From Bacillus subtilis subsp. subtilis str. 168 (GTDB lineage: Bacteria; Bacillota; Bacilli; Bacillales; Bacillaceae): a stretch of DNA of 32,000 nt. The notes below the pieces were generated by a model. It was not told the DNA's origin. It was given only the letters and a program-made list of their open reading frames with translations, and did not search any database. Below, piece after piece: positions 335 to 10,557 of the stretch; positions within the stretch are counted from its first letter, which is position 1, and the number at the start of each line of letters is the position of its first letter. The DNA lies in NCBI RefSeq assembly GCF_000009045.1, contig NC_000964.3:4183607-4215606 (forward strand). Reading direction: 5' to 3'. The translations under genes were made by a program, and so were the position numbers.

Positions 335-410
335 TGTTTTAACCTTACTATTATAAGACCACATGCGTGCTGTACAGTCCAGACTAATATCAGAAAAGGA
401 TTGATTCATA

Positions 411-857
411 ATGAATATAAAAAGAATAACAACTGAAGCTGATTTACATGAAGCTTTAAAGATTAGAAGAGGCGTTTTCATTGAGGAGCAACATGTGTCT
501 GAAGCCGATGAGTTCGATGAATTTGATACGCTTCAGGAACAATGCCAGCATATCTTGGTATATCATGAGAATCAGCCTGTCGGCACCGGACGCGCGCGCA
601 TCGTTGGCCATACAGCAAAGCTGGAAAGAATCTGCATCCTAAAACCTTACCGTAAGTACGGATTGGGGAAGATCATCGTAAGCGGGTTAGAGGAAATCAT
701 GAAAGAAAAAGGACTGACTTCATATAAGCTGCATGGTCAAACACAAGCGGCAGGCTTTTATCAAAAACTGGGCTACCAGATTTCTTCACAGGAATTTATG
801 GAGGACGGCATCCCTCACGTCTTGATGACAAAAGAAATATCGCGGAATATAACATGA
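411..857 (+). CDS. yyaT: GNAT-family N-acetyltransferase
   Basis: 148-aa ORF with a GNAT acetyl-CoA motif region (LERICILKPYRKYGLGKIIV). AAAGGA RBS upstream. Stop overlaps the yyaS start (ATGA). Confidence 0.85.
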   Translation: MNIKRITTEADLHEALKIRRGVFIEEQHVSEADEFDEFDTLQEQCQHILVYHENQPVGTGRARIVGHTAKLERICILKPYRKYGLGKIIVSGLEEIMKEKGLTSYKLHGQTQAAGFYQKLGYQISSQEFMEDGIPHVLMTKEISRNIT

Positions 858-1459
858 AATATATGTATTACGGAATAGGCATACTCATATTAAGTTTGGG
901 CATTTCCTTAACCATACAATCAGGACTGGGCACATCACCCTTCGATGCCCTTTTGGTTGGTCTGTCAAAAAAAATCGGTCTTACCGTAGGAAGCTGGGAG
1001 GTCCTTATTTCTGTGATCCTCTTAATCTGCAACGCTATATTAACGAGAAAAAAACCTATTTTGCTGGGCTTGATTACAGCATTCATTACTGGAATAGGCA
1101 TTGACCTATGGTTGTTTGTTGTAAAAAACACCATCTATCTAAACTCGTTGTTAAGCAAACTGATTTGTTTTGGAATTGGTTTGGTGCTCATCGGTCTTGG
1201 AACAGCCATCTATCTTCAGACGAAATTCGCATCAACACCGATCGATCATTTAACACTTATTATCCGAGATCTCTCCAAAAGAACAATATTGTTTTCAAGG
1301 ACATTGGTATACGCTCTTTTCTTAGTATTAGCCATCATCTTTAAAGGCCCTATCGGCATCGGAACTCTTTTAACGGTTTGTTTGGGAGGAATGCTCCTTC
1401 ACGTTTTTATGCCTATTGTGGAAAGACATTTCTTATCAAAGAATAGAAGAGGTTATTAA
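854..1459 (+). CDS. yyaS: Polytopic membrane protein (YczE/YyaS/YitT-like), function unknown
   Basis: 201-aa ORF that is strongly hydrophobic with several predicted TM segments. Translationally coupled to yyaT. Confidence 0.8.
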   Translation: MKYMYYGIGILILSLGISLTIQSGLGTSPFDALLVGLSKKIGLTVGSWEVLISVILLICNAILTRKKPILLGLITAFITGIGIDLWLFVVKNTIYLNSLLSKLICFGIGLVLIGLGTAIYLQTKFASTPIDHLTLIIRDLSKRTILFSRTLVYALFLVLAIIFKGPIGIGTLLTVCLGGMLLHVFMPIVERHFLSKNRRGY

Positions 1460-1475
1460 GAAACCTCTTCTCGAT

Positions 1476-1511
1476 CCAAAAAACGAAACGCAAAACAAGC
1501 CCCGTTTCGTT
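1476..1511 (-). terminator. Rho-independent terminator downstream of satA (minus strand)
   Basis: Stem AACGAAACG (1482-1490) pairs with CGTTTCGTT (1503-1511). On the minus strand it is followed by a T-run (plus-strand A-run 1478-1481). A second hairpin, AGAAGAGGTT/AACCTCTTCT at 1445-1471, sits right after the yyaS stop but lacks a T-tract. Confidence 0.55.
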
Positions 1512-1553
1512 GTCAATTCTTTATCTCTGGTACTGTTGAGGTTTTATAATCAA

Positions 1554-2075
1554 TTAAAATTTATAGTACCAAAAAATCGCAATTTCATTTGCTGTTGGAA
1601 AGTTGGAATAAAGCATCGTATCAACCGCACCTATTATAAAGTGATGTTTGGCATAAAAATGACAAGCTGAAATATTAATATCTTGGGTTTCAAGCATAAG
1701 ACCACAAAAATGATTCTCCTTTGCCCACTCAATCGCTTTATGTAATAATGCTGTTCCAACACCTTTTTTTCTATAGTCTTTTGCCACGGCAATGTCCTCT
1801 ATTAGTGCATACCCATTCCAGTTAGAACGGATCTTAATCCGGCCAATGCAGTTGTTTTCAAGATAATATAAAAAAGCCGCTTTCCCCTCTTCTTCAACAT
1901 AACTAACATCCATGTCATCATCTTCATATTGTTTAAAATAAGGTTTAGAAAATCGTTCCTCAGTATATGTCCAAACACCGTTTTCAAAAGCAGGTATCAT
2001 TCTCCCAAAAACAACGAAAGGTTCGTTTGGTTTATTGAAATCTTTCATATTCAAATGAGTCATTTTCATGATCAT
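1554..2075 (-). CDS. satA: GNAT-family streptothricin N-acetyltransferase
   Basis: The track ORF 1554..2090 begins at a TTG. The GGAG RBS sits 7-8 nt before the ATG at 2075, giving 173 aa (MIMKMTHLNMKDF...). GNAT motif DYRKKGVGTALL. Matches B. subtilis YyaR/SatA. Confidence 0.85.
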   Translation of the reverse strand: MIMKMTHLNMKDFNKPNEPFVVFGRMIPAFENGVWTYTEERFSKPYFKQYEDDDMDVSYVEEEGKAAFLYYLENNCIGRIKIRSNWNGYALIEDIAVAKDYRKKGVGTALLHKAIEWAKENHFCGLMLETQDINISACHFYAKHHFIIGAVDTMLYSNFPTANEIAIFWYYKF

Positions 2076-2261
2076 ATCAATCTCCGCCAATCGAGATAAT
2101 ATTTAGTAAACTCGTTTCGATACTATTCAACAACAGCTTCCAAAAGTGTACTCTTTAAGAGAACAGCATTAGATAAGGCATCCATTACCTTATATATTTC
2201 ACTATCTTAATGAGGTATTTCAACAGAGGCTTGTGGTACAGTAAAAAGGAATAGAAACAAG

Positions 2262-2442
2262 AGAAAAGAAGATGAACCTATGCCCACTAACAATAAACTC
2301 AATGAGAAATATCATACTTCCTTCAACTCGCCCACAACCCTGTTGACTAGTATCCGTGGAGAGAGGAAGCTTTGACACAGCTTCTGCCATTGATGACATC
2401 TCTATTGAAGTATCCAAAGGACAACCAAGGATCGCTCTTTGA
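2262..2442 (+). pseudogene. Most degraded remnant of a yyaL-like gene: 5' head (about 2262-2377) plus a short C-terminal-like tail (to 2442)
   Basis: AGAAAAGAAGATGAACCTATGCCCACTAACAATAAAC...CTCGCCCACAACCCTGTTGACTAG...GAAGCTTTGA aligns by eye to yyaL 7574-7700, with substitutions and an internal deletion of about 12 nt. No intact reading frame. Confidence 0.55.
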
Positions 2443-2485
2443 CTTTTTCAAGAAGAAAGTAGAGTGAATAAAGGAGTGATTGAGT

Positions 2486-2842
2486 ATGTTAACAAGAGAA
2501 GATATCTTTAAACACGTCAAAGAAAAATACGGTACATCGCCTGATTACCCGTGGGAGAAATACCCAAACTATGCTTCTTTGAGACATACATCAAACAAAA
2601 AATGGTACGGTCTTATCATGAATGTTCTCCCAGAAAAATTAGGCTTGGATGGTCATGGCGAAATAGATATTCTAAATCTAAAATGTCCCCCTGAAATAAG
2701 TGATCGCTTAAGAAACGGGGAAAATATCTTACCCGGATATCATATGGATAAGGAACATTGGATTTCAATTGTTTTAGAACGGACAGATCCAGAAGGCGAA
2801 ATCTATAACTTAATCGAGCAGAGCTTTCATTTAACCAAGTGA
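2486..2842 (+). CDS. yyaQ: MmcQ/YjbR-family small protein, function unknown
   Basis: The track ORF starts at TTG 2480. AAAGGAG lies 8 nt before the ATG at 2486, giving 118 aa (MLTREDIFKHVKEKYGTSPDYPW...). Confidence 0.8.
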   Translation: MLTREDIFKHVKEKYGTSPDYPWEKYPNYASLRHTSNKKWYGLIMNVLPEKLGLDGHGEIDILNLKCPPEISDRLRNGENILPGYHMDKEHWISIVLERTDPEGEIYNLIEQSFHLTK

Positions 2843-3001
2843 AGATAAAGAGTGTTCCTGCTAATCAAGCTGCGAAGAGTAGTGGGCACTTTCATTTTAG
2901 GATACTGTTCTTCACTCTGTCCACAAACGCAACTTAGTTCATCTGGTGCGAGAGTGGGAGAAGAATTTCAACCAACTTCTTATGTAAAAGGATGAATAGT
3001 T

Positions 3002-3568
3002 ATGACAAATAACTTAAAACAGAGAAGAATCATTTTAGATTTAGCAGTTACTTTAGATGGTTTTATTGAAGGGAAAAATGGAGAAGTTGATTGGTGTATT
3101 ATGGACCCTGATATGGGGTTTACTGATTTTTTAAATCAAATTGATACTATTTTATATGGTAGAAAAAGCTTCGATTTATGGGGACAATACATTCCAAAAA
3201 ATGAAGACCCTGATACAGAAAAGGAACTTTGGAAATTGGTTCATAGTAAAAAGAAATATGTTTTTTCCAGAACACAAAATGAGATTGATAATCAAGCCAT
3301 ATTTATAAATGATAATATTCTTGAAGAAGTAAATAAATTGAAGAAAAATCCTGGTAAAGACATCTGGCTATATGGTGGAGCGAGTCTCATTACAACTTTT
3401 ATAAATTTGGGGCTTGTTGATGAATTTAGATTATCTATTCACCCTGTTGTTTTGGGAGAAGGAAAACCGTTGTTTATTGATGTAAAACAGAGGATAAATT
3501 TAAAAATGGTGAATACAAGAACATTTTCCTCTGGCGTTGTGCAAATCGTTTATCATTGGAATGGCTAA
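3002..3568 (+). CDS. yyaP: Dihydrofolate-reductase-like protein (RibD C-terminal domain family)
   Basis: 188-aa ORF with hallmark stretches of this family: RRIILDLAVTLDGFIEG, ILYGRKSFDLW and WLYGGASLITTFINLGLVDEFRLSIHPVVLGEGKPLF. Confidence 0.85.
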   Translation: MTNNLKQRRIILDLAVTLDGFIEGKNGEVDWCIMDPDMGFTDFLNQIDTILYGRKSFDLWGQYIPKNEDPDTEKELWKLVHSKKKYVFSRTQNEIDNQAIFINDNILEEVNKLKKNPGKDIWLYGGASLITTFINLGLVDEFRLSIHPVVLGEGKPLFIDVKQRINLKMVNTRTFSSGVVQIVYHWNG

Positions 3569-3610
3569 CATTGTAAAGTAACACTCGACAGTAATCCTTC
3601 TTATTGAACT

Positions 3611-3643
3611 AAAGGGGAATCCATAAATAATGGGTTCCCCTTA
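3611..3643 (+). terminator. Hairpin downstream of yyaP (AAGGGGAA-T-CCAT / ATGG-G-TTCCCCTT)
   Basis: Read directly. The stem is GC-containing but the 3' T-tract is weak. Confidence 0.45.
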
Positions 3644-3796
3644 ATATACTATGGAATTATCAATATCAAATTTTCTGTAATAAAAGAGGATTGAAAAGGA
3701 CGATGTCTCCTCAATTAACATCATTAAGCATTATAGTATATTTTCTTCTCCCTCTTTTAAGTAATCGGCTAAGTTTTGTATTTATAAAAAAACGAA

Positions 3797-4042
3797 AGAA
3801 GGTGATCCAATGCCTACTAACAATAAACCCAATAGATTAATCGCTGAGAAATCTACTTATTTTACTTCAACATGCTCATAACCCTGTGGACTGGTTCCCT
3901 TGGGGAGAAGAAGCATATGAAAAAGCGAAACGCGAAAACAAGCCTGTTCTCGTATCTATTGGGTATAGCTAACGATGGCTAATCTAAAGAACATGCTATT
4001 GATGCCATGTTTATTCATTTTACAAAAAAGGATCAACCTTGA
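3797..4042 (+). pseudogene. Frameshifted remnant of a yyaL-like gene: 5' head (3797 to about 3967) plus a C-terminal-like tail (3989-4042)
   Basis: GAAAGAAGGTGATCCAATGCCTACTAACAATAAACCCAATAGATTAATCGCTGAGAAA... parallels yyaL 7577 onward. A 1-nt insertion (TATTTTACTTCAACA versus TATTTACTCCAACA) shifts the frame, and a TAA follows at codon 24. Confidence 0.7.
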
Positions 4043-4067
4043 ATTACTTTCACAAGATTGATCCTTT
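4022..4067 (-). terminator. Rho-independent terminator of tetB
   Basis: AAAGGATCAA (4027-4036) pairs with TTGATCCTTT (4058-4067) just past the tetB stop. On the minus strand the stem runs into TTTTTTG. Confidence 0.6.
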
Positions 4068-4074
4068 CACTCAT

Positions 4075-5451
4075 TTAGCCATGTCTCCGCGAACGTTTAT
4101 ATACATTCAAGATTACTAGCCAACAAATAACAATGATTCCTGCAAAAAGTATGAGCATATTGCTATACAAATAGGTAGAGTGATCAACGTCAATAGGCAG
4201 CAGCCTATGATCTAGGAAGCCGATAGATAATAAACCGCCTACAATCGCAATACCCGTTCCCTCTGATAAAAAGCTCGTGAAATTAAGCAAACTCATTCCA
4301 GCGCCCGCTTCCTTTTCTTTCAAACTGCTAGACACAACTGTAGATATAACTGTTTTTGTGAAAGATAGCCCCCCAAAAACAAAAATTACTATAATTGTCA
4401 TGATCCATGGTGCTGCATCTATAAAAAAGGCAGCGATTAAAAAGCCGGAAGAAAGCAATGCACTTCCAATAGTTAGTACATACAAGGAACCTTTCCGATC
4501 AACAAGCAATCCCCCAATGTAACCAAAGATGATGACACTCATTGTTCCGGGGAAAATAATGCCGCTTCCAATTGCTGCAGTACTTAAATGGTGAACATCT
4601 TTCATCATGTAAGGAACCATAGAGACAAATCCTGCTACTGTACCAAATATTAGTCCTCCGCAAAGGGTTCCAATCACAAAAAAGACGTTTTTCCCTAATT
4701 CAGGGTCAACAAAAGGGTCCTGAGCTTTCCTAATGTGTTGCACAAATATGAAGAAAGCAAGGATACTGATGATCAGAAAAGAAAATCTATAAGATGTTGT
4801 AAACAGCATAAAAAATACGATACCTGCAGACATCAATATAATCCCTGCCATATCAATGTGTCCTCTTATTCTCTCTTCCTTTTTCAACAATTTTATAAGG
4901 AATGGAACGGTGATAATTGTTGCAGTTGGAATAAGCAGCAAATACGACCAATGGATATAATGAGCAACCATTCCGCCAATAGCTGGCCCAACACCTTCTC
5001 CCATTGCTACCAGGGACCCGATCAGGCCAAATGCTTTCCCCCTGTTCTCTTTTGGAATATAGCGCGCAACGACAACCATCACAAGAGCTGGGAATGCGGC
5101 TGCACCAATTCCTTGAATAAATCGGGCTAGAATGAGAATAGGAAAGAAAGAGTGTCCAACAAATCCAATGATCGACCCTAAGCCATTTACCATAATCCCA
5201 AATAGAAGCAGATTTTTGATGCCCAGCTGGTCTGATAGCTTTCCATATAGAGCTGTTCCAATGGAGAAGGTTAACATAAAGGCTGTATTCACCCAGTTTG
5301 CACTTGCTGGCAGTTTATTAAACTCGTTGGCAATATCAGGTAATGAGACGTTCAGAACCATTTCATTTAATACGCTGAAAAATGATAGAACACAAAGCCA
5401 AATCAAAACTTGATTGTGCCGTAAAGTTGACTGTGAATAAGACGTATTCAC
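4075..5451 (-). CDS. tetB: Tet(L)-type tetracycline-divalent metal/H+ antiporter (14-TMS MFS, DHA2-like)
   Basis: 458-aa ORF with a GTG start (CAC at 5449-5451) 7 nt after GGAGGGG. The sequence [44 protein letters not shown]... is recognisably Tet(L). Confidence 0.95.
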
Positions 5452-5457
5452 AATTTC

Positions 5458-5474
5458 CCCTCCATTAATGAGGG
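5458..5474 (-). promoter_or_regulatory. Short hairpin (CCCTC / GAGGG, 7-nt loop) overlapping the tetB Shine-Dalgarno
   Basis: Read directly. It lies between the leader-peptide stop and the tetB GTG. This fits the known leader-peptide-dependent translational control of tet(L) genes. Confidence 0.4.
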
Positions 5475-5484
5475 CAGACGCAGT

Positions 5485-5547
5485 TTATAGGGTCATTGAT
5501 ACGCTTCCCTCTTTTAATTGTACCCTGTTCATTTTATTGCACTTCAT
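5485..5547 (-). CDS. tetL: tet(L) leader peptide, 20 aa (MKCNKMNRVQLKEGSVSMTL)
   Basis: An ATG preceded by GGGGGAG at proper spacing, ending 33 nt upstream of the tetB start. It forms the C-terminal part of track ORF 5485..5682. Confidence 0.75.
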   Translation of the reverse strand: MKCNKMNRVQLKEGSVSMTL

Positions 5548-5769
5548 AATAACTCCCCCTACATTTGATTGATATGATCTTATTATATATAGACTAAGGA
5601 TTAAACTTTTACTTTTTTTATAAAAATTTGACCAGATTGCGAAACAAGGAAAAACGTTATTCGCATTTATCTCAAGTGGCAAAATGAAACATTAGTTTAT
5701 ATTTTCACATCACAATTATCGATAAGCAGTCAGTTATTGTATTTGTTTAGGATAACTGTGGTAACCTGA

Positions 5770-6039
5770 ATATAACCAACTTAGGAAGAAGGTGATCCCA
5801 TGCCAAATAAAAGTAAACCCAATAGATTAATCGCTGAAAAGTCTCCTTATTTACTCCAACACGCCCACAACCCTGTGGACTGGTTCCCGTGGGGAGAAGA
5901 AGCATTTGCAAAAGCAAAACGCGAAAACAAGCCGGTTCTGGTCAGCATCGGTTATTCGACGACTTGTCATTGGTGGCCTGGGATAATCAAATCGTGTGGA
6001 ACTCCATTAAAAGATAACAGAAGCCATTTTAAACGATAA
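5770..6039 (+). pseudogene. yyaO: Truncated duplicate of the yyaL 5' end (79-codon ORF)
   Basis: The first 56 residues match YyaL almost exactly (two substitutions). An extra Thr follows, then CHW, and the sequence then diverges (STTCHWWPG... versus STCHWCHVM...). Nucleotide homology, including the RBS GGAAGAAGGTGATCCC, runs to 5975. Confidence 0.85.
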
Positions 6040-6088
6040 TACTATTTGTTCAAACAATACAGTCTACCTTTTATTTCATTCATTTTCT

Positions 6089-6128
6089 AAAACCTGTAAT
6101 CCGTAACCACGCGGTAGCAGGTTTTTTT
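6089..6128 (+). terminator. Rho-independent terminator after yyaO
   Basis: AAAACCTG...CAGGTTTT stem with internal CCG/CGG pairing, followed by a T7 run (6122-6128). Confidence 0.55.
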
Positions 6129-6134
6129 ATTTGC

Positions 6135-6165
6135 TTGACTTAGAGTTAACTCTAAATTGTAAACT
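6135..6165 (+). promoter_or_regulatory. MerR-type promoter of yyaN-yyaM: TTGACT - 19-nt spacer - TAAACT, with the perfect palindrome TTAGAGTTAACTCTAA (6140-6155) spanning the spacer
   Basis: Read directly. An over-long 19-bp spacer containing a dyad is the signature of MerR-family-controlled promoters. It lies immediately upstream of a MerR-family gene. Confidence 0.65.
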
Positions 6166-6177
6166 AACTTTAATTAA

Positions 6178-6606
6178 ATGAGAGGGATGATGTTGTTGTA
6201 TTCCATTAGTAAAGCTGCTGAGAAGACTAGTATTAGTTCGTATACATTAAGATATTACGAAAAGATTGGGTTACTTCCACCACCAAAACGAAAAAACAGT
6301 GGAAGGCGTTTTTATACGGAGACTGATATTCAGTTCATGTTATTCCTGAAAAGTTTAAAGGAAACAGGTATGTCTTTGGAGGATATTAATGAGTTTGTCA
6401 AAGACGGATGCATTTTGGAAAAAATCAATTCGGATGTTAAATCGGCACAACTCTCCCCATCTATAAATAAACGTATTGAGATTTTAACCAAGCACTTAGA
6501 GAAAATGGAAATTAAAAAAAGGGAGCTGGAAGAAGTGATTTCTACTACAAAAGGAAAACTGGATACATATTATTCAATTTTGAAAGAGGAAGTGGAAAAC
6601 AAATGA
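6178..6606 (+). CDS. yyaN: MerR-family transcriptional regulator
   Basis: N-terminal HTH YSISKAAEKTSISSYTLRYYEKIGLL, followed by a coiled-coil region. The true start may be one of the ATGs at 6187/6190 after GAGAGGG. Stop overlaps the yyaM start. Confidence 0.85.
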   Translation: MRGMMLLYSISKAAEKTSISSYTLRYYEKIGLLPPPKRKNSGRRFYTETDIQFMLFLKSLKETGMSLEDINEFVKDGCILEKINSDVKSAQLSPSINKRIEILTKHLEKMEIKKRELEEVISTTKGKLDTYYSILKEEVENK

Positions 6607-7520
6607 AACATTTAAATATATACATAATGTTACTTGGCTTCTCTATTTTCACGGGAGCTACTTTTAATCTTGCAAAATATACAGTTGGATATTTTTCTCC
6701 ATCGTCTTCTGCGGCATGGCGTTTCGGTTTAGCGGCTGCAGTGATGCTCATCATTTTGATTTTTACTGAAGGTATAAAGAAGAGTCAATTACGGAAAAAC
6801 GCCGTTTCATACATTGTTCTTGGAATTATAGGAATCTTTGGATTTAATGCCTTGTTTTTTGTTGGTTTAAAATATACATCTCCCGTTAACGGAGCATTAA
6901 TAATGGGGCTGAATCCTTTATTAACAGCAATTCTCGCTCGAATTATCTTAAAGGACAACATGACAAAAAAACAAGTACTCGGCATATTCTTTGCATTCAT
7001 CGGTGTATTGTTAGTCATTACACAAGGTTCTATCGAAACCATTAAAACCTTATCAATTTCAGGAGGAGACTTAATAATCTTTACAGGTAACGTTTGTTGG
7101 GCACTTTATGGCGTACTTGGACGTCGGTTTGTAAAGGATGGTACACCGCTATCTACAACCACTTATACGATGGTTATTGGTGCTGTTAGTTTAATAGTAG
7201 TTTCCTTATTTACATCCAAACCTGTTTCTTTATCGAACATCCCGATTGGAGTTTGGGGGGCAATTGCTTTTATGGCTTTTTTTACAAGTGTTTTGGGTTA
7301 CCTATGGTGGAATCAGGGGATTAAAGAGATTGGAGCTAGTAAAACATCTTTATTTTTCAACCTTGTTCCCGTTGTAACGATGATTATTTCATTTGCCGTT
7401 GGAACACCAATAAAGGTATTTCAAGTTATTGGGGCTGTGCTAGTTATATTAGGCGTTTTAACCGCTTCGGGGGTAATACGTATTCCTAAGTACAATACTA
7501 AAGAACAGTCAGCTATATAA
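6603..7520 (+). CDS. yyaM: EamA/DMT-superfamily transporter (about 10 TMS)
   Basis: 305-aa hydrophobic ORF with the duplicated EamA architecture. Translationally coupled to yyaN. Confidence 0.85.
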   Translation: MKHLNIYIMLLGFSIFTGATFNLAKYTVGYFSPSSSAAWRFGLAAAVMLIILIFTEGIKKSQLRKNAVSYIVLGIIGIFGFNALFFVGLKYTSPVNGALIMGLNPLLTAILARIILKDNMTKKQVLGIFFAFIGVLLVITQGSIETIKTLSISGGDLIIFTGNVCWALYGVLGRRFVKDGTPLSTTTYTMVIGAVSLIVVSLFTSKPVSLSNIPIGVWGAIAFMAFFTSVLGYLWWNQGIKEIGASKTSLFFNLVPVVTMIISFAVGTPIKVFQVIGAVLVILGVLTASGVIRIPKYNTKEQSAI

Positions 7521-7558
7521 AGAAATAGGGAGTATTTTTGAGAAAATGTGTTAAGTTA

Positions 7559-7764
7559 AATATACACTAATTATAGGAAGAAGGTGATCCCATGCCAAAC
7601 AAAAGTAAACCCAATAGATTAATCAATGAGAAATCACCATATTTACTCCAACACGCCCACAACCCTGTGGACTGGTTCCCGTGGGGAGAAGAAGCTTTTG
7701 AAAAAGCAAAACGCGAAAACAAGCCGGTTCTGGTCAGCATCGGTTATTCGACTTGTCATTGGTG
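7559..7764 (+). repeat. Reference (intact) copy of the roughly 0.2-kb direct repeat formed by the yyaL RBS region and first 58 codons
   Basis: Direct-orientation copies at 5770-5975, 3797 to about 3967 and 2262 to about 2377 (see the pseudogene features). Confidence 0.8.
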
Positions 7765-9661
7765 CCACGTGATGGCCCACGAAAGCTTTGAAGACGAAGA
7801 AATCGCGCGTCTTCTCAATGAACGGTTTGTGGCGATTAAAGTCGACCGGGAAGAGCGGCCTGATGTGGATTCTGTTTATATGAGAATCTGCCAGCTGATG
7901 ACCGGGCAGGGCGGCTGGCCGCTGAATGTGTTTATCACGCCTGATCAAAAGCCGTTTTACGCGGGTACATATTTTCCAAAGACGAGCAAATTCAATCGTC
8001 CCGGTTTTGTTGATGTGCTTGAGCATCTGTCTGAGACGTTTGCGAACGACCGCGAGCATGTCGAGGATATTGCGGAGAACGCCGCTAAACATTTGCAGAC
8101 CAAAACAGCTGCAAAAACTGGTGAGGGCCTTAGCGAATCAGCGATTCACCGGACATTCCAGCAGCTTGCCAGCGGGTTTGACACGATCTACGGCGGTTTC
8201 GGGCAGGCACCGAAATTTCCAATGCCTCATATGCTGATGTATTTGCTACGTTATGATCACAATACAGGGCAGGAGAACGCTCTATACAACGTGACGAAAA
8301 CATTGGACAGCATGGCGAATGGCGGCATTTACGATCATATCGGCTATGGGTTCGCCCGCTATTCGACCGATGACGAGTGGCTCGTTCCCCACTTTGAAAA
8401 AATGCTGTACGACAATGCGCTGCTGCTGACCGCTTATACAGAAGCCTATCAGGTCACGCAAAACAGCCGCTATAAAGAGATTTGTGAGCAGATCATTACG
8501 TTCATTCAGAGGGAAATGACTCATGAAGACGGAAGCTTTTTCTCGGCTTTGGACGCGGACACAGAAGGAGAAGAAGGAAAGTACTACGTGTGGTCAAAGG
8601 AAGAGATTCTAAAAACGCTCGGGGACGATCTCGGAACGCTGTATTGCCAAGTGTATGACATCACTGAAGAAGGAAACTTTGAAGGCAAAAATATTCCTAA
8701 CCTCATTCACACAAAGCGAGAACAAATCAAAGAGGATGCCGGGTTAACCGAAAAAGAGCTCAGTCTCAAACTCGAAGACGCAAGACAGCAGCTCTTGAAG
8801 ACACGCGAGGAAAGAACCTATCCGCATGTCGATGATAAAGTGCTTACCTCATGGAACGCGCTGATGATCGCGGGTCTTGCGAAAGCGGCAAAGGTATACC
8901 AGGAGCCGAAATATCTCAGCCTAGCGAAAGACGCCATCACATTTATTGAAAACAAATTAATCATCGACGGCCGTGTGATGGTCCGATATCGTGATGGCGA
9001 AGTGAAAAACAAAGGCTTTATCGACGATTACGCTTTTCTCCTATGGGCTTATCTGGATCTCTATGAAGCTTCGTTTGATCTTTCTTATTTACAAAAAGCG
9101 AAGAAACTGACAGACGATATGATCAGCTTATTTTGGGATGAGGAGCATGGCGGATTCTACTTCACCGGACACGATGCAGAAGCCTTAATCGTACGGGAAA
9201 AAGAAGTGTACGACGGCGCCGTGCCTTCAGGAAACAGTGTGGCAGCTGTTCAGCTGCTGCGTCTCGGGCAAGTCACAGGCGACTTATCACTGATCGAAAA
9301 AGCGGAAACAATGTTTTCCGTGTTCAAGCCAGACATAGAAGCGTATCCGAGCGGCCATGCTTTCTTTATGCAAAGTGTGTTAAGGCATCTGATGCCTAAA
9401 AAAGAAATCGTGATTTTTGGCAGCGCAGACGATCCAGCCAGAAAACAAATTATAGCGGAGCTTCAAAAAGCCTTTAAGCCCAACGACTCCATTCTGGTGG
9501 CAGAGCAGCCCGAGCAATGCAAAGACATTGCGCCATTTGCAGCAGACTACCGCATCATAGACGGCAAAACAACCGTTTATATTTGTGAAAACTTCGCCTG
9601 CCAGCAACCGACAACAAATATTGAAGAAGCGATCCACACATTAATAAGCAGCAGGGATTAA
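7592..9661 (+). CDS. yyaL: Thioredoxin-domain protein of the DUF255/SSP411 family (N-terminal CxxC thioredoxin fold plus six-hairpin glycosidase-like domain)
   Basis: 689-aa ORF with GGAAGAAGGTGA RBS. CHWC motif at residues 55-58 and long alpha/alpha-toroid-like remainder. Confidence 0.9.
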
Positions 9662-10557
9662 GACCCTTGCTGCTTACTTTTTGATTTCTTATGGTACCAT
9701 AAAGCGATCCCCGCAAACACAAGGTTGACCGCTATCGTAAAGAAAGCCTCCCACATCGGGTTCCCCCGCGTAACGGTAAACAGAGAAGGAATTCCTCCAT
9801 ACACACTGTTTTTTTCTGTAATAAACATACACAAAAACATATTATTCGCGGCATGGGCGCCAAGTGATATTTCGATGCTCCCAGTTTTAATCGTGTAATA
9901 CGTCCACACAAACCCAAATGTTAAGTACTCAATTCCTGCCCAGACAGCGCCATTGTTCATTTCTGGATTCGCAAAATGCAATACGCCAAACAATCCTCCG
10001 ACAATCAGTGTCAAAAATAGAGGATTTTTCGTCAATCTCCCGAAAGCTTGAAGCAAAAATCCCCTGAAAAATAGTTCCTCAGCTGATGTCTGAATCGGAA
10101 CCAAAATGAGGGCAGCCGCTAGCAGCCAGATAAATCGTGATGCATTAAACTCTTGCATTGAATAGCTATCAGGATGAATCACAAAATCAATCAATTGTAC
10201 GGCGATCATTAGCAAGAAATAAGCAATAAAACCAAAGGAAATTCTCCGCCAATTCATCTTTGAATTTGGTGTTATCACCGTTCGGAAAGGCCGCTTCAAA
10301 ATAAAGCGCACAGCCAGCCAAACTCCCGGAATGGCGAATAAATAAATCACATGGGACAAATAAAGATCTACGAGGGGATCACTCAGCACAGCTTCATCCA
10401 AATCAAACGTGATATTGGGATTCACAATAACCGTGAACAATATAGCGAAAAGGTAAGCTATATTCCCTAATACATATAACCCTACCATCACCAAAAAAGC
10501 GAAAAAATATCTCCACAACGTATTGTTTCCTTCTATAGGACGGATAAATGAATTCAT
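9658..10557 (-). CDS. yyaK: CPBP-family (CAAX/Abi) intramembrane metalloprotease
   Basis: CPBP motifs are visible: [16 protein letters not shown] and HAANN. The track ORF is extended to a TTG at 10581; I prefer the ATG at 10557 (MNSFIRP..., 299 aa). Confidence 0.85.

Follow-up and report, generated by a model that had tools for sequence, protein, structure and literature searches.

The 5′ end of yyaL as a probable attachment site for serially accreted elements in Bacillus subtilis and its relatives

We consider here the region of yyaL in Bacillus subtilis subsp. subtilis str. 168, within a 32,000-nt stretch of the chromosome (positions 4,183,607 to 4,215,606 of NC_000964.3) that is referred to below as the window. 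Over 19,661 nt the window matches a B. subtilis chromosome with 100% identity. The intact yyaL gene occupies 7592–9661 on the + strand and encodes a 689-aa protein of the thioredoxin-domain/DUF255 (SSP411) family. Its ribosome-binding site (RBS) and 5′ end recur three times to the left on the same strand, as copy 3 at 5785–5975, where the yyaO open reading frame (ORF) lies at 5800–6039, as copy 2 at 3795–4010, and as copy 1, the leftmost, at 2262–2392. A scan for GAAGAAGGTGATCCNATGCC allowing up to three mismatches returned four matches, all on the + strand (2265, 3795, 5785 and 7577), against 0.00 expected in shuffled sequence, and a repeat finder recovered the same four sites as its families D1–D3. 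In the multiple alignment the four-copy similarity spans the RBS and about 180 nt of coding sequence, giving a repeat of about 190 nt, with weak similarity over some 40 nt 5′ of the RBS in several copies. The initial annotation of this stretch was therefore right that there are four same-strand copies and that their similarity is not confined to the Shine-Dalgarno region. It was also right about the grading of the displaced copies, with decay growing leftwards from the intact gene: copy 3 (5782–5960) shares 95% identity with yyaL across 179 nt and has a 3-nt CGA insertion; for copy 2, which carries a premature TAA as well as a 1-nt insertion, blastn gives 86% identity across 158 nt; and copy 1 is 84% identical over the 76 nt that blastn aligned.

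The ends of the two older-looking copies had, however, been placed too far left. Copy 2 does not stop near 3967, but continues past a 21-nt insertion (3970–3990) to about 4010. Copy 1 does not stop near 2377; it has suffered not one internal deletion but two, of 13 nt and then of 44 nt, after which it resumes with TGCCATTGATGACATCT (about 2386–2403) and reaches about 2415, an end point set by alignment with a better-preserved homologue in B. mojavensis. With these corrections the three displaced copies share a single end point, in the codons of the CHWCHV active-site motif; the homology of copy 3 to yyaL, for example, stops after CATTGGTG. In yyaL itself the putative attachment core, GGTTATTCGACTTGTCAT-TG-GTGCCACGTGATGG, would lie at 7742–7776 on the + strand and cover codons G51–M61, including CHWCHV, with a GGTTA motif that starts at −18. 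The crossover is presumed to fall at or near the TG at 7760–7761, which corresponds to TG 5971–5972 in copy 3, 4000–4001 in copy 2 and 2391–2392 in copy 1, the last of these resembling the B arm of an attL site. We infer that copy 1 is the oldest of the displaced copies and that the order of events ran from left to right.

The repeats bound three cargo modules, as originally described, whose content we took from the ORFs of the window and their Pfam context. Module 1 (2393–4001, +) contains yyaQ (YjbR family, 2486–2842) and yyaP (RibD_C family, 3002–3568) followed by a right-end yyaL-like arm, which is copy 2, and it opens with an element-side (P′-type) arm, ATGACATCT|CTATTGAAGTATCC, at 2393–2415 (+), in which an inverted GTATCC ends at +23 from the core. 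Module 2 (4002–5972) contains tetB/tet(L) (4075–5451) and its leader peptide (5485–5547), both on the minus strand, and about 180 nt 5′ of copy 3. Module 3 (5973–7761, +) contains yyaN (MerR family, 6178–6606), yyaM (EamA family, 6603–7520) and the upstream region, RBS and 5′ end of the present yyaL, so that the first ~170 nt of today's gene and the sequence upstream of it are supplied by this module. No recombinase, relaxase, transposase or insertion sequence was seen in the window or in its Pfam context, in keeping with the earlier statement that integrase, transposase and insertion sequence are absent from it. The window is thus a recombinase-less accretion array of three modules, yyaQ-yyaP, tetB and yyaN-yyaM.

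Comparison with relatives indicates that this arrangement is one instance of a recurrent pattern. Gene contexts were fetched through YyaL orthologues of the B. subtilis group. All 24 contigs that encode exactly the YyaL protein of the window have an identical gene context. Nine related Bacillus genomes share conserved genes 3′ of yyaL (in the order yyaK, yyaJ ... rpsR, ssb, rpsF, ychF) and have unrelated cargo 5′ of it, bounded by 15 displaced yyaL 5′ fragments. The upstream cargo is wholly different even between close relatives, and nearly every genome has extra yyaL 5′ fragments: three in Bacillus sp. C28GYM-DRY-1 (locus L084); two each in B. halotolerans (L085), B. tequilensis (L086) and B. 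mojavensis (L094); and one each in two strains of B. atrophaeus (L087 and L096) and in B. velezensis (L097). In the relatives, repeats of this sort enclose other cargo altogether; such variation was what a comparison of the satA–yyaL interval had been expected to reveal. B. licheniformis has no displaced fragment within 10 kb, and its downstream context differs. A genome-collection scan with YyaL was rejected as a comparison set, as only distant homologues were among the matches listed; a self-scan of those 82 listed distant loci found duplicated N-termini in one only (L021, considered below), so the duplication is not a general property of yyaL.

An argument for a specific site comes from where the similarity breaks. 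In the nine Bacillus genomes, 14 of the 15 displaced fragments run to the same core, and 9 of 13 aligned junctions break right after CA(T/C)G(T/A), the H59–V60 codons of CHWCHV, with unrelated DNA beyond. The exception, L084_a, ends at +143, where it is fused to a fragment of an ABC-ATPase gene; this fusion (L084, 1217–1665) is in frame and makes a 143-aa chimeric ORF (Thioredox_DsbH + ABC_tran) from the sole fragment that stops short of the common core. The intact genes carry the mark of the same position. Mismatch maps show a switch from one 5′ type to the orthologous gene body at +162 to +180 in five pairs (window/L084, window/L086, L089/L095, window/L087 and L085/L094, where L089 is a second B. 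velezensis locus and L095 is from B. amyloliquefaciens). Thus the YyaL protein of L084 is 95% identical to that of the window, but the first 165 nt of its DNA are only about 72–76% identical, and in B. atrophaeus the relation is reversed, with 84% identity in the protein and about 94% in the 5′ segment. Five events falling in one 20-nt stretch of a 190-nt repeat would have a probability of the order of 1e-5 under a uniform model, which serves as a rough guide. Because breakpoints and switch points alike fall within about 20 nt at the CHWCHV codons, site-specific recombination appears to fit these alignments better than scattered homologous crossovers do.

The alternative to be weighed here is insertion by RecA alone, whether Campbell-type or driven by transformation, through a yyaL-like segment on circular or linear DNA and with no dedicated recombinase. 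Repeats of about 190 nt with 76–95% identity are long enough for RecA, and these species are naturally competent. The 5′ end of L087 is chimeric, native in type up to about the start codon and of element type beyond it, which is what the loss of an element through a homologous crossover between repeats would leave. A yyaQ-yyaP module with both flanking fragments is common to B. subtilis and B. mojavensis (87% identity), with different cargo next to it in each, and these homologous modules carry different core-proximal 5′ types in the two species, which also suits exchange between repeats. Crossovers of this kind should nevertheless scatter over the repeat, yet the five switch points and 14 of 15 fragment ends lie within about 20 nt at its right edge, and we consider a purely homologous origin unlikely. 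Homologous exchange between repeats seems to be only a secondary process. Of the two modes of insertion offered in the initial annotation, site-specific and Campbell-type, the common breakpoint speaks for the first and leaves to the second only this secondary role.

Whole modules are also present in one strain and missing from another, with the repeats as boundaries, as the annotation had led one to expect. A B. subtilis strain, L088, whose YyaL is 99% identical to that of the window, is without exactly yyaO-yyaN-yyaM. Its intact yyaL has the copy-3 type of upstream sequence and 5′ end at 7 of 7 informative sites of a three-way alignment, and then continues as normal yyaL. L088 is without the private changes of copy 3 (one substitution and the CGA insertion), and for this reason insertion of the 1.79-kb element in the lineage of strain 168 is favoured over a recent precise loss in L088. 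The two B. atrophaeus loci form a second pair: L096 corresponds to L087 with an 11.7-kb element added at the same site. The displaced fragment of L096 keeps the native upstream sequence of L087 and breaks at GCCATGTC|AATTAATTAAAATAACCA, and its intact yyaL has an element-derived upstream region. This combination of polymorphism, common breakpoint and swapped 5′ ends supports the earlier view that circular elements carrying their own yyaL 5′ ends were inserted serially. The same observations bear on a simpler history, in which the start of yyaL was duplicated locally in tandem and unrelated DNA was later inserted between the copies, or in which only a conserved RBS is seen. Direct repeats confined to one small region, with decay rising leftwards, are what such a history would produce. 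It has no place, however, for coding similarity of about 190 nt that extends beyond the RBS, for copies that represent distinct 5′ types closer to those of other species than to each other, for an intact yyaL whose 5′ end is foreign in type relative to its body, or for repeat-bounded modules that come and go as wholes between strains; we regard it as hardly credible.

If a dedicated enzyme acts at this core, the relatives offer a candidate. The array of L094 encodes a 233-aa protein with a Resolvase domain and half a Recombinase domain, whose relatives are mostly truncated. In L096 a 502-aa protein in which Resolvase, Recombinase and zinc-ribbon domains are all present can be rebuilt from two adjacent ORFs. 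The reconstructed protein is a large serine recombinase, its best solved homologue is SprA, the SPbeta integrase, and no other recombinase occurs in the 11.7-kb element. The gene directly 5′ of yyaL is homologous between L096 and L094 (E = 9e-29; 274 and 281 aa), so the two elements are related and stand at different stages of decay. A full-library search returned a relative that is intact at 502 aa and shares 52% identity. This protein has the domains Resolvase, Recombinase and Zn_ribbon_recom and falls in a cluster of 500–503-aa proteins from B. velezensis, B. amyloliquefaciens, B. siamensis and B. subtilis. Its neighbourhood in B. velezensis L097, on contig JBCNIE010000006.1 of GCA_050482605.1, is the same as that which precedes yyaL in B. 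velezensis L089. There a displaced yyaL fragment (9722–9914) breaks at CATTGATGCCATGTC|CACTAAAATAACCA (CATGTC|CACTAAAATAACCA), and the recombinase gene starts 86 nt past this junction, a proximity that purely homologous insertion leaves unexplained. Beyond the recombinase, on the other strand, are RapI-like, CwlT-like, ConG-sized and AAA_10/ConE-like genes of the type found in ICEBs1, an integrative and conjugative element (ICE).

The complementary end of such an element is seen in L095, a locus of CP032146.1, where genes for a Rep_trans relaxase, an FtsK-like protein, DUF961, ImmR/ImmA and AriA/AriB lead up to a yyaL 5′ arm that is continuous with the body of the gene. The L095 block was not accepted by itself as proof of ICE integration, as the position of int in ICEBs1 is taken there by AriA/AriB; the matter was settled only by L097. 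An immR-immA pair also lies one cargo block 5′ of yyaL in L089 (7877–8948), L095 (5927–7007) and L094 (8396–8974), and the ICEBs1 int position after immA holds an EamA gene, AriA/AriB and the gene for a 281-aa protein, respectively. L089 is a decayed remnant, because the conjugation genes are gone. Together these loci agree with the suggestion that any recombinase of the window has been lost or acts in trans: the window has none, and relatives at the same site carry a large serine recombinase.

The site could of course be served by another enzyme, a tyrosine recombinase or some unrecognised protein, with the serine recombinases nearby being cargo or the trace of other events. The recombinase copies of L096 and L094 are defective, repeats that restore a gene typically go with tyrosine recombinases (PMC5704250), and the conserved gene beside yyaL in L096 and L094 is without known function. 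On the other hand, no tyrosine recombinase or transposase domain was found in 13 Bacillus loci, two diverged serine recombinase lineages (52% identical) occur at the yyaL site in three species, and the intact gene of L097 stands directly beside the junction, in the usual place of an integrase. We therefore give little credence to a different enzyme, and retain the large serine recombinase as the candidate.

The spacing of short motifs about the core may point in the same direction. Positions were counted from the TG of CAT-TG-G taken as centre, the central dinucleotide (TG or TT) being itself presumed. In plain copies, intact or displaced, GGNTA starts at −18 wherever the motif is retained. 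Four copies are of an insertion type (win_c2, that is, copy 2 of the window, L085_b, L086_L and L095_L), in which an insertion of 14–21 nt makes a second GGNTA at −23, or at −24 in L085_b with its 1-nt indel. On the other side, an inverted TANCC ends at +23 in the element arms of win_c1, L094, L086_a and L097, and at +27 in L096, where there is a 4-nt duplication; the background rate of TANCC is 0.0024 per nt. For large serine integrases, attB has its outer-domain motifs 5 bp nearer the centre than attP does (PMC11722253). The difference between −18 and −23/+23 matches this 5-bp shift, a match we would call suggestive, the arms being related by descent so that the spacings are not independent observations. 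Neither TAACC at +23 in the short arms of unrelated modules nor the 5-bp difference is explained by RecA-mediated insertion, and the 5-bp rule, being specific to large serine integrases (PMC11722253), also disfavours an enzyme of another class.

We propose, with a probability of roughly three in four, that the yyaL 5′ end contains the attB site used by one family of integrative elements of the B. subtilis group, with its core at the C55–V60 codons (TGTCATTGGTGCCAYGT), that the arrays have grown by serial accretion, and that a large serine recombinase of about 500 aa is the likeliest catalyst. The site on the element would have two arms, one of them yyaL-like, in which some 170 nt of coding sequence follow a promoter-like region and the RBS, and the other a short element arm with the inverted TAACC. 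The circular form of the element would recombine with yyaL at the core, so that the resident promoter and 5′ end, now fused to the element arm, would stay behind on the left as a dead fragment and the element's own 5′ end would head the rest of yyaL. The integrated element would then decay, losing its recombinase and transfer genes. The gene-proximal copy would be, or would again become, a plain B-type target, for which exchange with a displaced copy is a plausible route in view of the chimeric 5′ end of L087 and of the identity of the two L096 copies through the ~85 nt that precede the core. The next element could then integrate there, producing in time an array of modules with the oldest leftmost. 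Such accretion and decay are established for ICEs, integrative and mobilizable elements (IMEs) and cis-mobilizable elements (CIMEs) (PMC5704250). In many copies, extended −10-like motifs lie about 25–40 nt 5′ of the RBS (window 7540–7576, 5750–5784 and 2230–2262, with equivalents in L084–L097), reading TGTGGTAA/TGTGGTACAGT in one set of copies and TCTGGTATATTAAAT in another; this suggests that each element arm also brings a yyaL promoter. A generic scan for promoter and terminator consensus sequences was uninformative, with 25 sites against 19 expected.

Several points weigh against this proposal. Elements with serine recombinases usually have very short repeats and disrupt their target (PMC5704250), and a repeat of about 190 nt is unlike these. 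The assignment of the recombinase as catalyst at the yyaL core is itself drawn from gene position and homology and should be read as provisional: the recombinase copies seen in one locus with the body of yyaL (L094 and L096) are all broken, and the stretch of L097 examined is the recombinase-side end, where the copy is intact and the yyaL side is out of view. The right half of the proposed attB is weak, with ATGGCC ending at +16 rather than +18, and the dyad symmetry of the core does not exceed that of shuffled controls. The element arms that follow copies 2 and 3 are without the TAACC motif. Finally, many gene-proximal copies beside elements are of the plain type (−18) and not of the insertion type, so that the model needs either later homologous repair or elements with B-type arms.

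The three modules of the window accordingly differ in how well they conform. Module 1 fits best, with its TATCC arm at +23 on the left and an insertion-type arm at −23 on the right, and the L088 polymorphism lends support to module 3. The least canonical is module 2, which may have arrived, been remodelled or been captured by another route, since its left arm is without the motif and plasmid-type tet(L) sequence begins about 20 nt from the core. Plasmid tet(L) regions match the window only at 4024–5605 (tetB, leader and terminator), with about 80% identity; the match begins about 20 nt past the core of copy 2, and the remaining 180 nt before copy 3 are without a plasmid match. A truncated yyaL segment beside tet(L), which the initial annotation had thought might be found on a plasmid, was not found in the plasmid, phage or viral collections. 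Plasmid matches to the yyaL 5′ end were rejected as element carriers, being full-length genes on large, chromosome-like Paenibacillus replicons; the phage and viral collections gave no match. Copies 2 and 3 are direct repeats that flank tetB at a spacing of 1989 nt and could be end points of tetB amplification. Tetracycline-selected amplification of the chromosomal tet locus is said to have been seen in older B. subtilis work.

The claim that each event rebuilds an intact yyaL does not hold throughout. In B. tequilensis L086 (9801–10004) and B. amyloliquefaciens L095 (9810–9999), yyaL is split by an insertion, of 20 nt or 14 nt, with an in-frame TAG just before the CHWC codons, and it is because of the stop codon of this insertion that several orthologues are called as 629-aa proteins starting at M61. 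The L086 insertion forms a hairpin (GTATAGCTA...TAGCTATAC). A further idea, which we hold tentatively and think somewhat doubtful, is that attP evolved from a copy of the target gene. The 14–21-nt insertion would shift the motif by 5 bp, from −18 to −23, and thereby turn a B-type into a P-type half-site; subsequent repair of the insertion, through exchange with the displaced copy, would make yyaL whole again, fix the element where it is and provide a fresh attB. Such a ratchet would let an integron-like array of resistance, transport and anti-phage modules grow beside oriC. Arrays of this kind, that of strain 168 included, might then still be mobilisable in trans by an incoming element.

Other features of the relatives concern the cargo and the range of the site. 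Anti-phage genes occur at yyaL junctions, namely AriA/AriB (PARIS) in L095 (7266–9749) and DolA/DolB (Dodola) in L084 (7875–9736), and a SIR2-domain protein (PDC-S25/ThsA-like) is encoded beside the junction in L094 (5292–7208). Anti-phage cargo is frequent enough at the junctions that the site acts as a defence-island hotspot. L021, a metagenome-assembled genome of the Thermacetogeniaceae (class Clostridia), has two extra yyaL 5′ fragments bracketing a nucleotidyltransferase/HEPN pair (380–3000). They break at ...CACTGGCGCCACGT|TCATC, in the same CHWCH-coding core, and use of this site thus seems to reach well beyond Bacillus; the contig has only a short flank, on which no recombinase can be seen. 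In B. velezensis a short yyaL 5′ fragment in reverse orientation follows an EamA gene (L089, 5668–5905; L097, 6332–6382 and 12783–12986), next to sequence that matches the L097 ICE at its RapI-proximal end. The reversed fragment may have been left by an older integration in inverted orientation, or may reflect a rearrangement.

If our proposal is correct, yyaO and two unannotated pseudo-starts in the B. subtilis 168 reference genome would be attachment-site scars, and the chromosomal tet(L)/tetB, yyaN-yyaM and yyaQ-yyaP would be acquired cassettes about 20 kb from oriC-proximal genes, of which parB, noc, rsmG, mnmG, mnmE and yidC are in the right-hand part of the window. The region is a hypervariable hotspot of the B. 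subtilis group, where genes for efflux or resistance are found among the cargo alongside anti-phage systems (PARIS, Dodola, SIR2). The recombinase and its site would be a candidate new integrase/att pair whose natural target lies in B. subtilis and which might serve genome engineering, and the copies would provide a natural case in which the two types of serine-integrase att half-site can be compared on a shared sequence background. That the locus had not been described as an accretion hotspot agrees with the literature searched, in which, its coverage being incomplete, neither a yyaL attachment site nor an array was found.

Among known systems, the accretion arrays of CIMEs, ICEs and IMEs (PMC5704250) follow the same scheme of site-specific integration, decay that keeps both att sites, and new integration at the att site at the gene end. 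Also as at yyaL, intact relatives supply the recombinase in CIME arrays, and the features by which a CIME is recognised are found here: four copies at one core, modules without integration or transfer genes, recombinase-bearing relatives and strain polymorphism. Arrays related to ICESt1 and ICESt3 were reportedly described in Streptococcus thermophilus by Pavlovic in 2004. CIME arrays differ from that of yyaL in that those described mostly involve tyrosine integrases which target tRNA or protein genes at the 3′ end, whereas the yyaL array has a 5′-end target, a repeat composed of a promoter-like region, RBS and about 170 nt, and a candidate large serine recombinase. The candidate has the three domains and falls in the ~450–600-aa size range of such enzymes, and its gene in L097 adjoins the junction.

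SCCmec and composite staphylococcal cassette chromosome (SCC) elements of staphylococci insert at the 3′ end of rlmH (orfX) by means of the Ccr large serine recombinases. As at yyaL, a large serine recombinase is involved, there is one chromosomal hotspot, which lies close to the replication origin, and the target gene is preserved; the tandem arrays likewise contain pseudo-elements that have no recombinase but carry resistance genes and other cargo. They differ from it in their repeats, which are of ~15–18 bp and at a 3′ end, in contrast to the ~190–250-bp replacement 5′ end carried by yyaL elements; the best solved homologue of the yyaL-site recombinase is SprA. ICEs of the SXT/R391 family insert at the 5′ end of prfC by a tyrosine integrase with a 17-bp core. 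Like the yyaL elements, they enter at a 5′ end and bring a new promoter and 5′ coding sequence, so that the gene stays functional; unlike them, they use a tyrosine integrase, and serial decayed arrays are not their hallmark.

In gene content L095 and L097 are closest to ICEBs1, with which they share the Rep_trans relaxase, the FtsK-like coupling protein, ImmR/ImmA, a CwlT-like hydrolase, an AAA_10 (ConE-like) protein and a RapI-like regulator. ICEBs1 has its tyrosine integrase next to immA and inserts in trnS-leu2; here, by contrast, cargo follows immA, a large serine recombinase lies at the opposite end, and the target is yyaL. Because the defining integration features of ICEBs1 are missing, the intact relatives are variants with a swapped integration module. 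The array is not an integron, which has the tyrosine recombinase IntI beside attI and cassettes that end with folded attC sites; no tyrosine recombinase was found in the loci, and the repeats are gene 5′ ends rather than attC hairpins. The principle, then, is already known from CIME accretion, from SCC at rlmH and from SXT at prfC, and what differs at yyaL is the combination of a large serine recombinase, a 5′-end target and a gene-derived restoring arm of about 190–250 nt.

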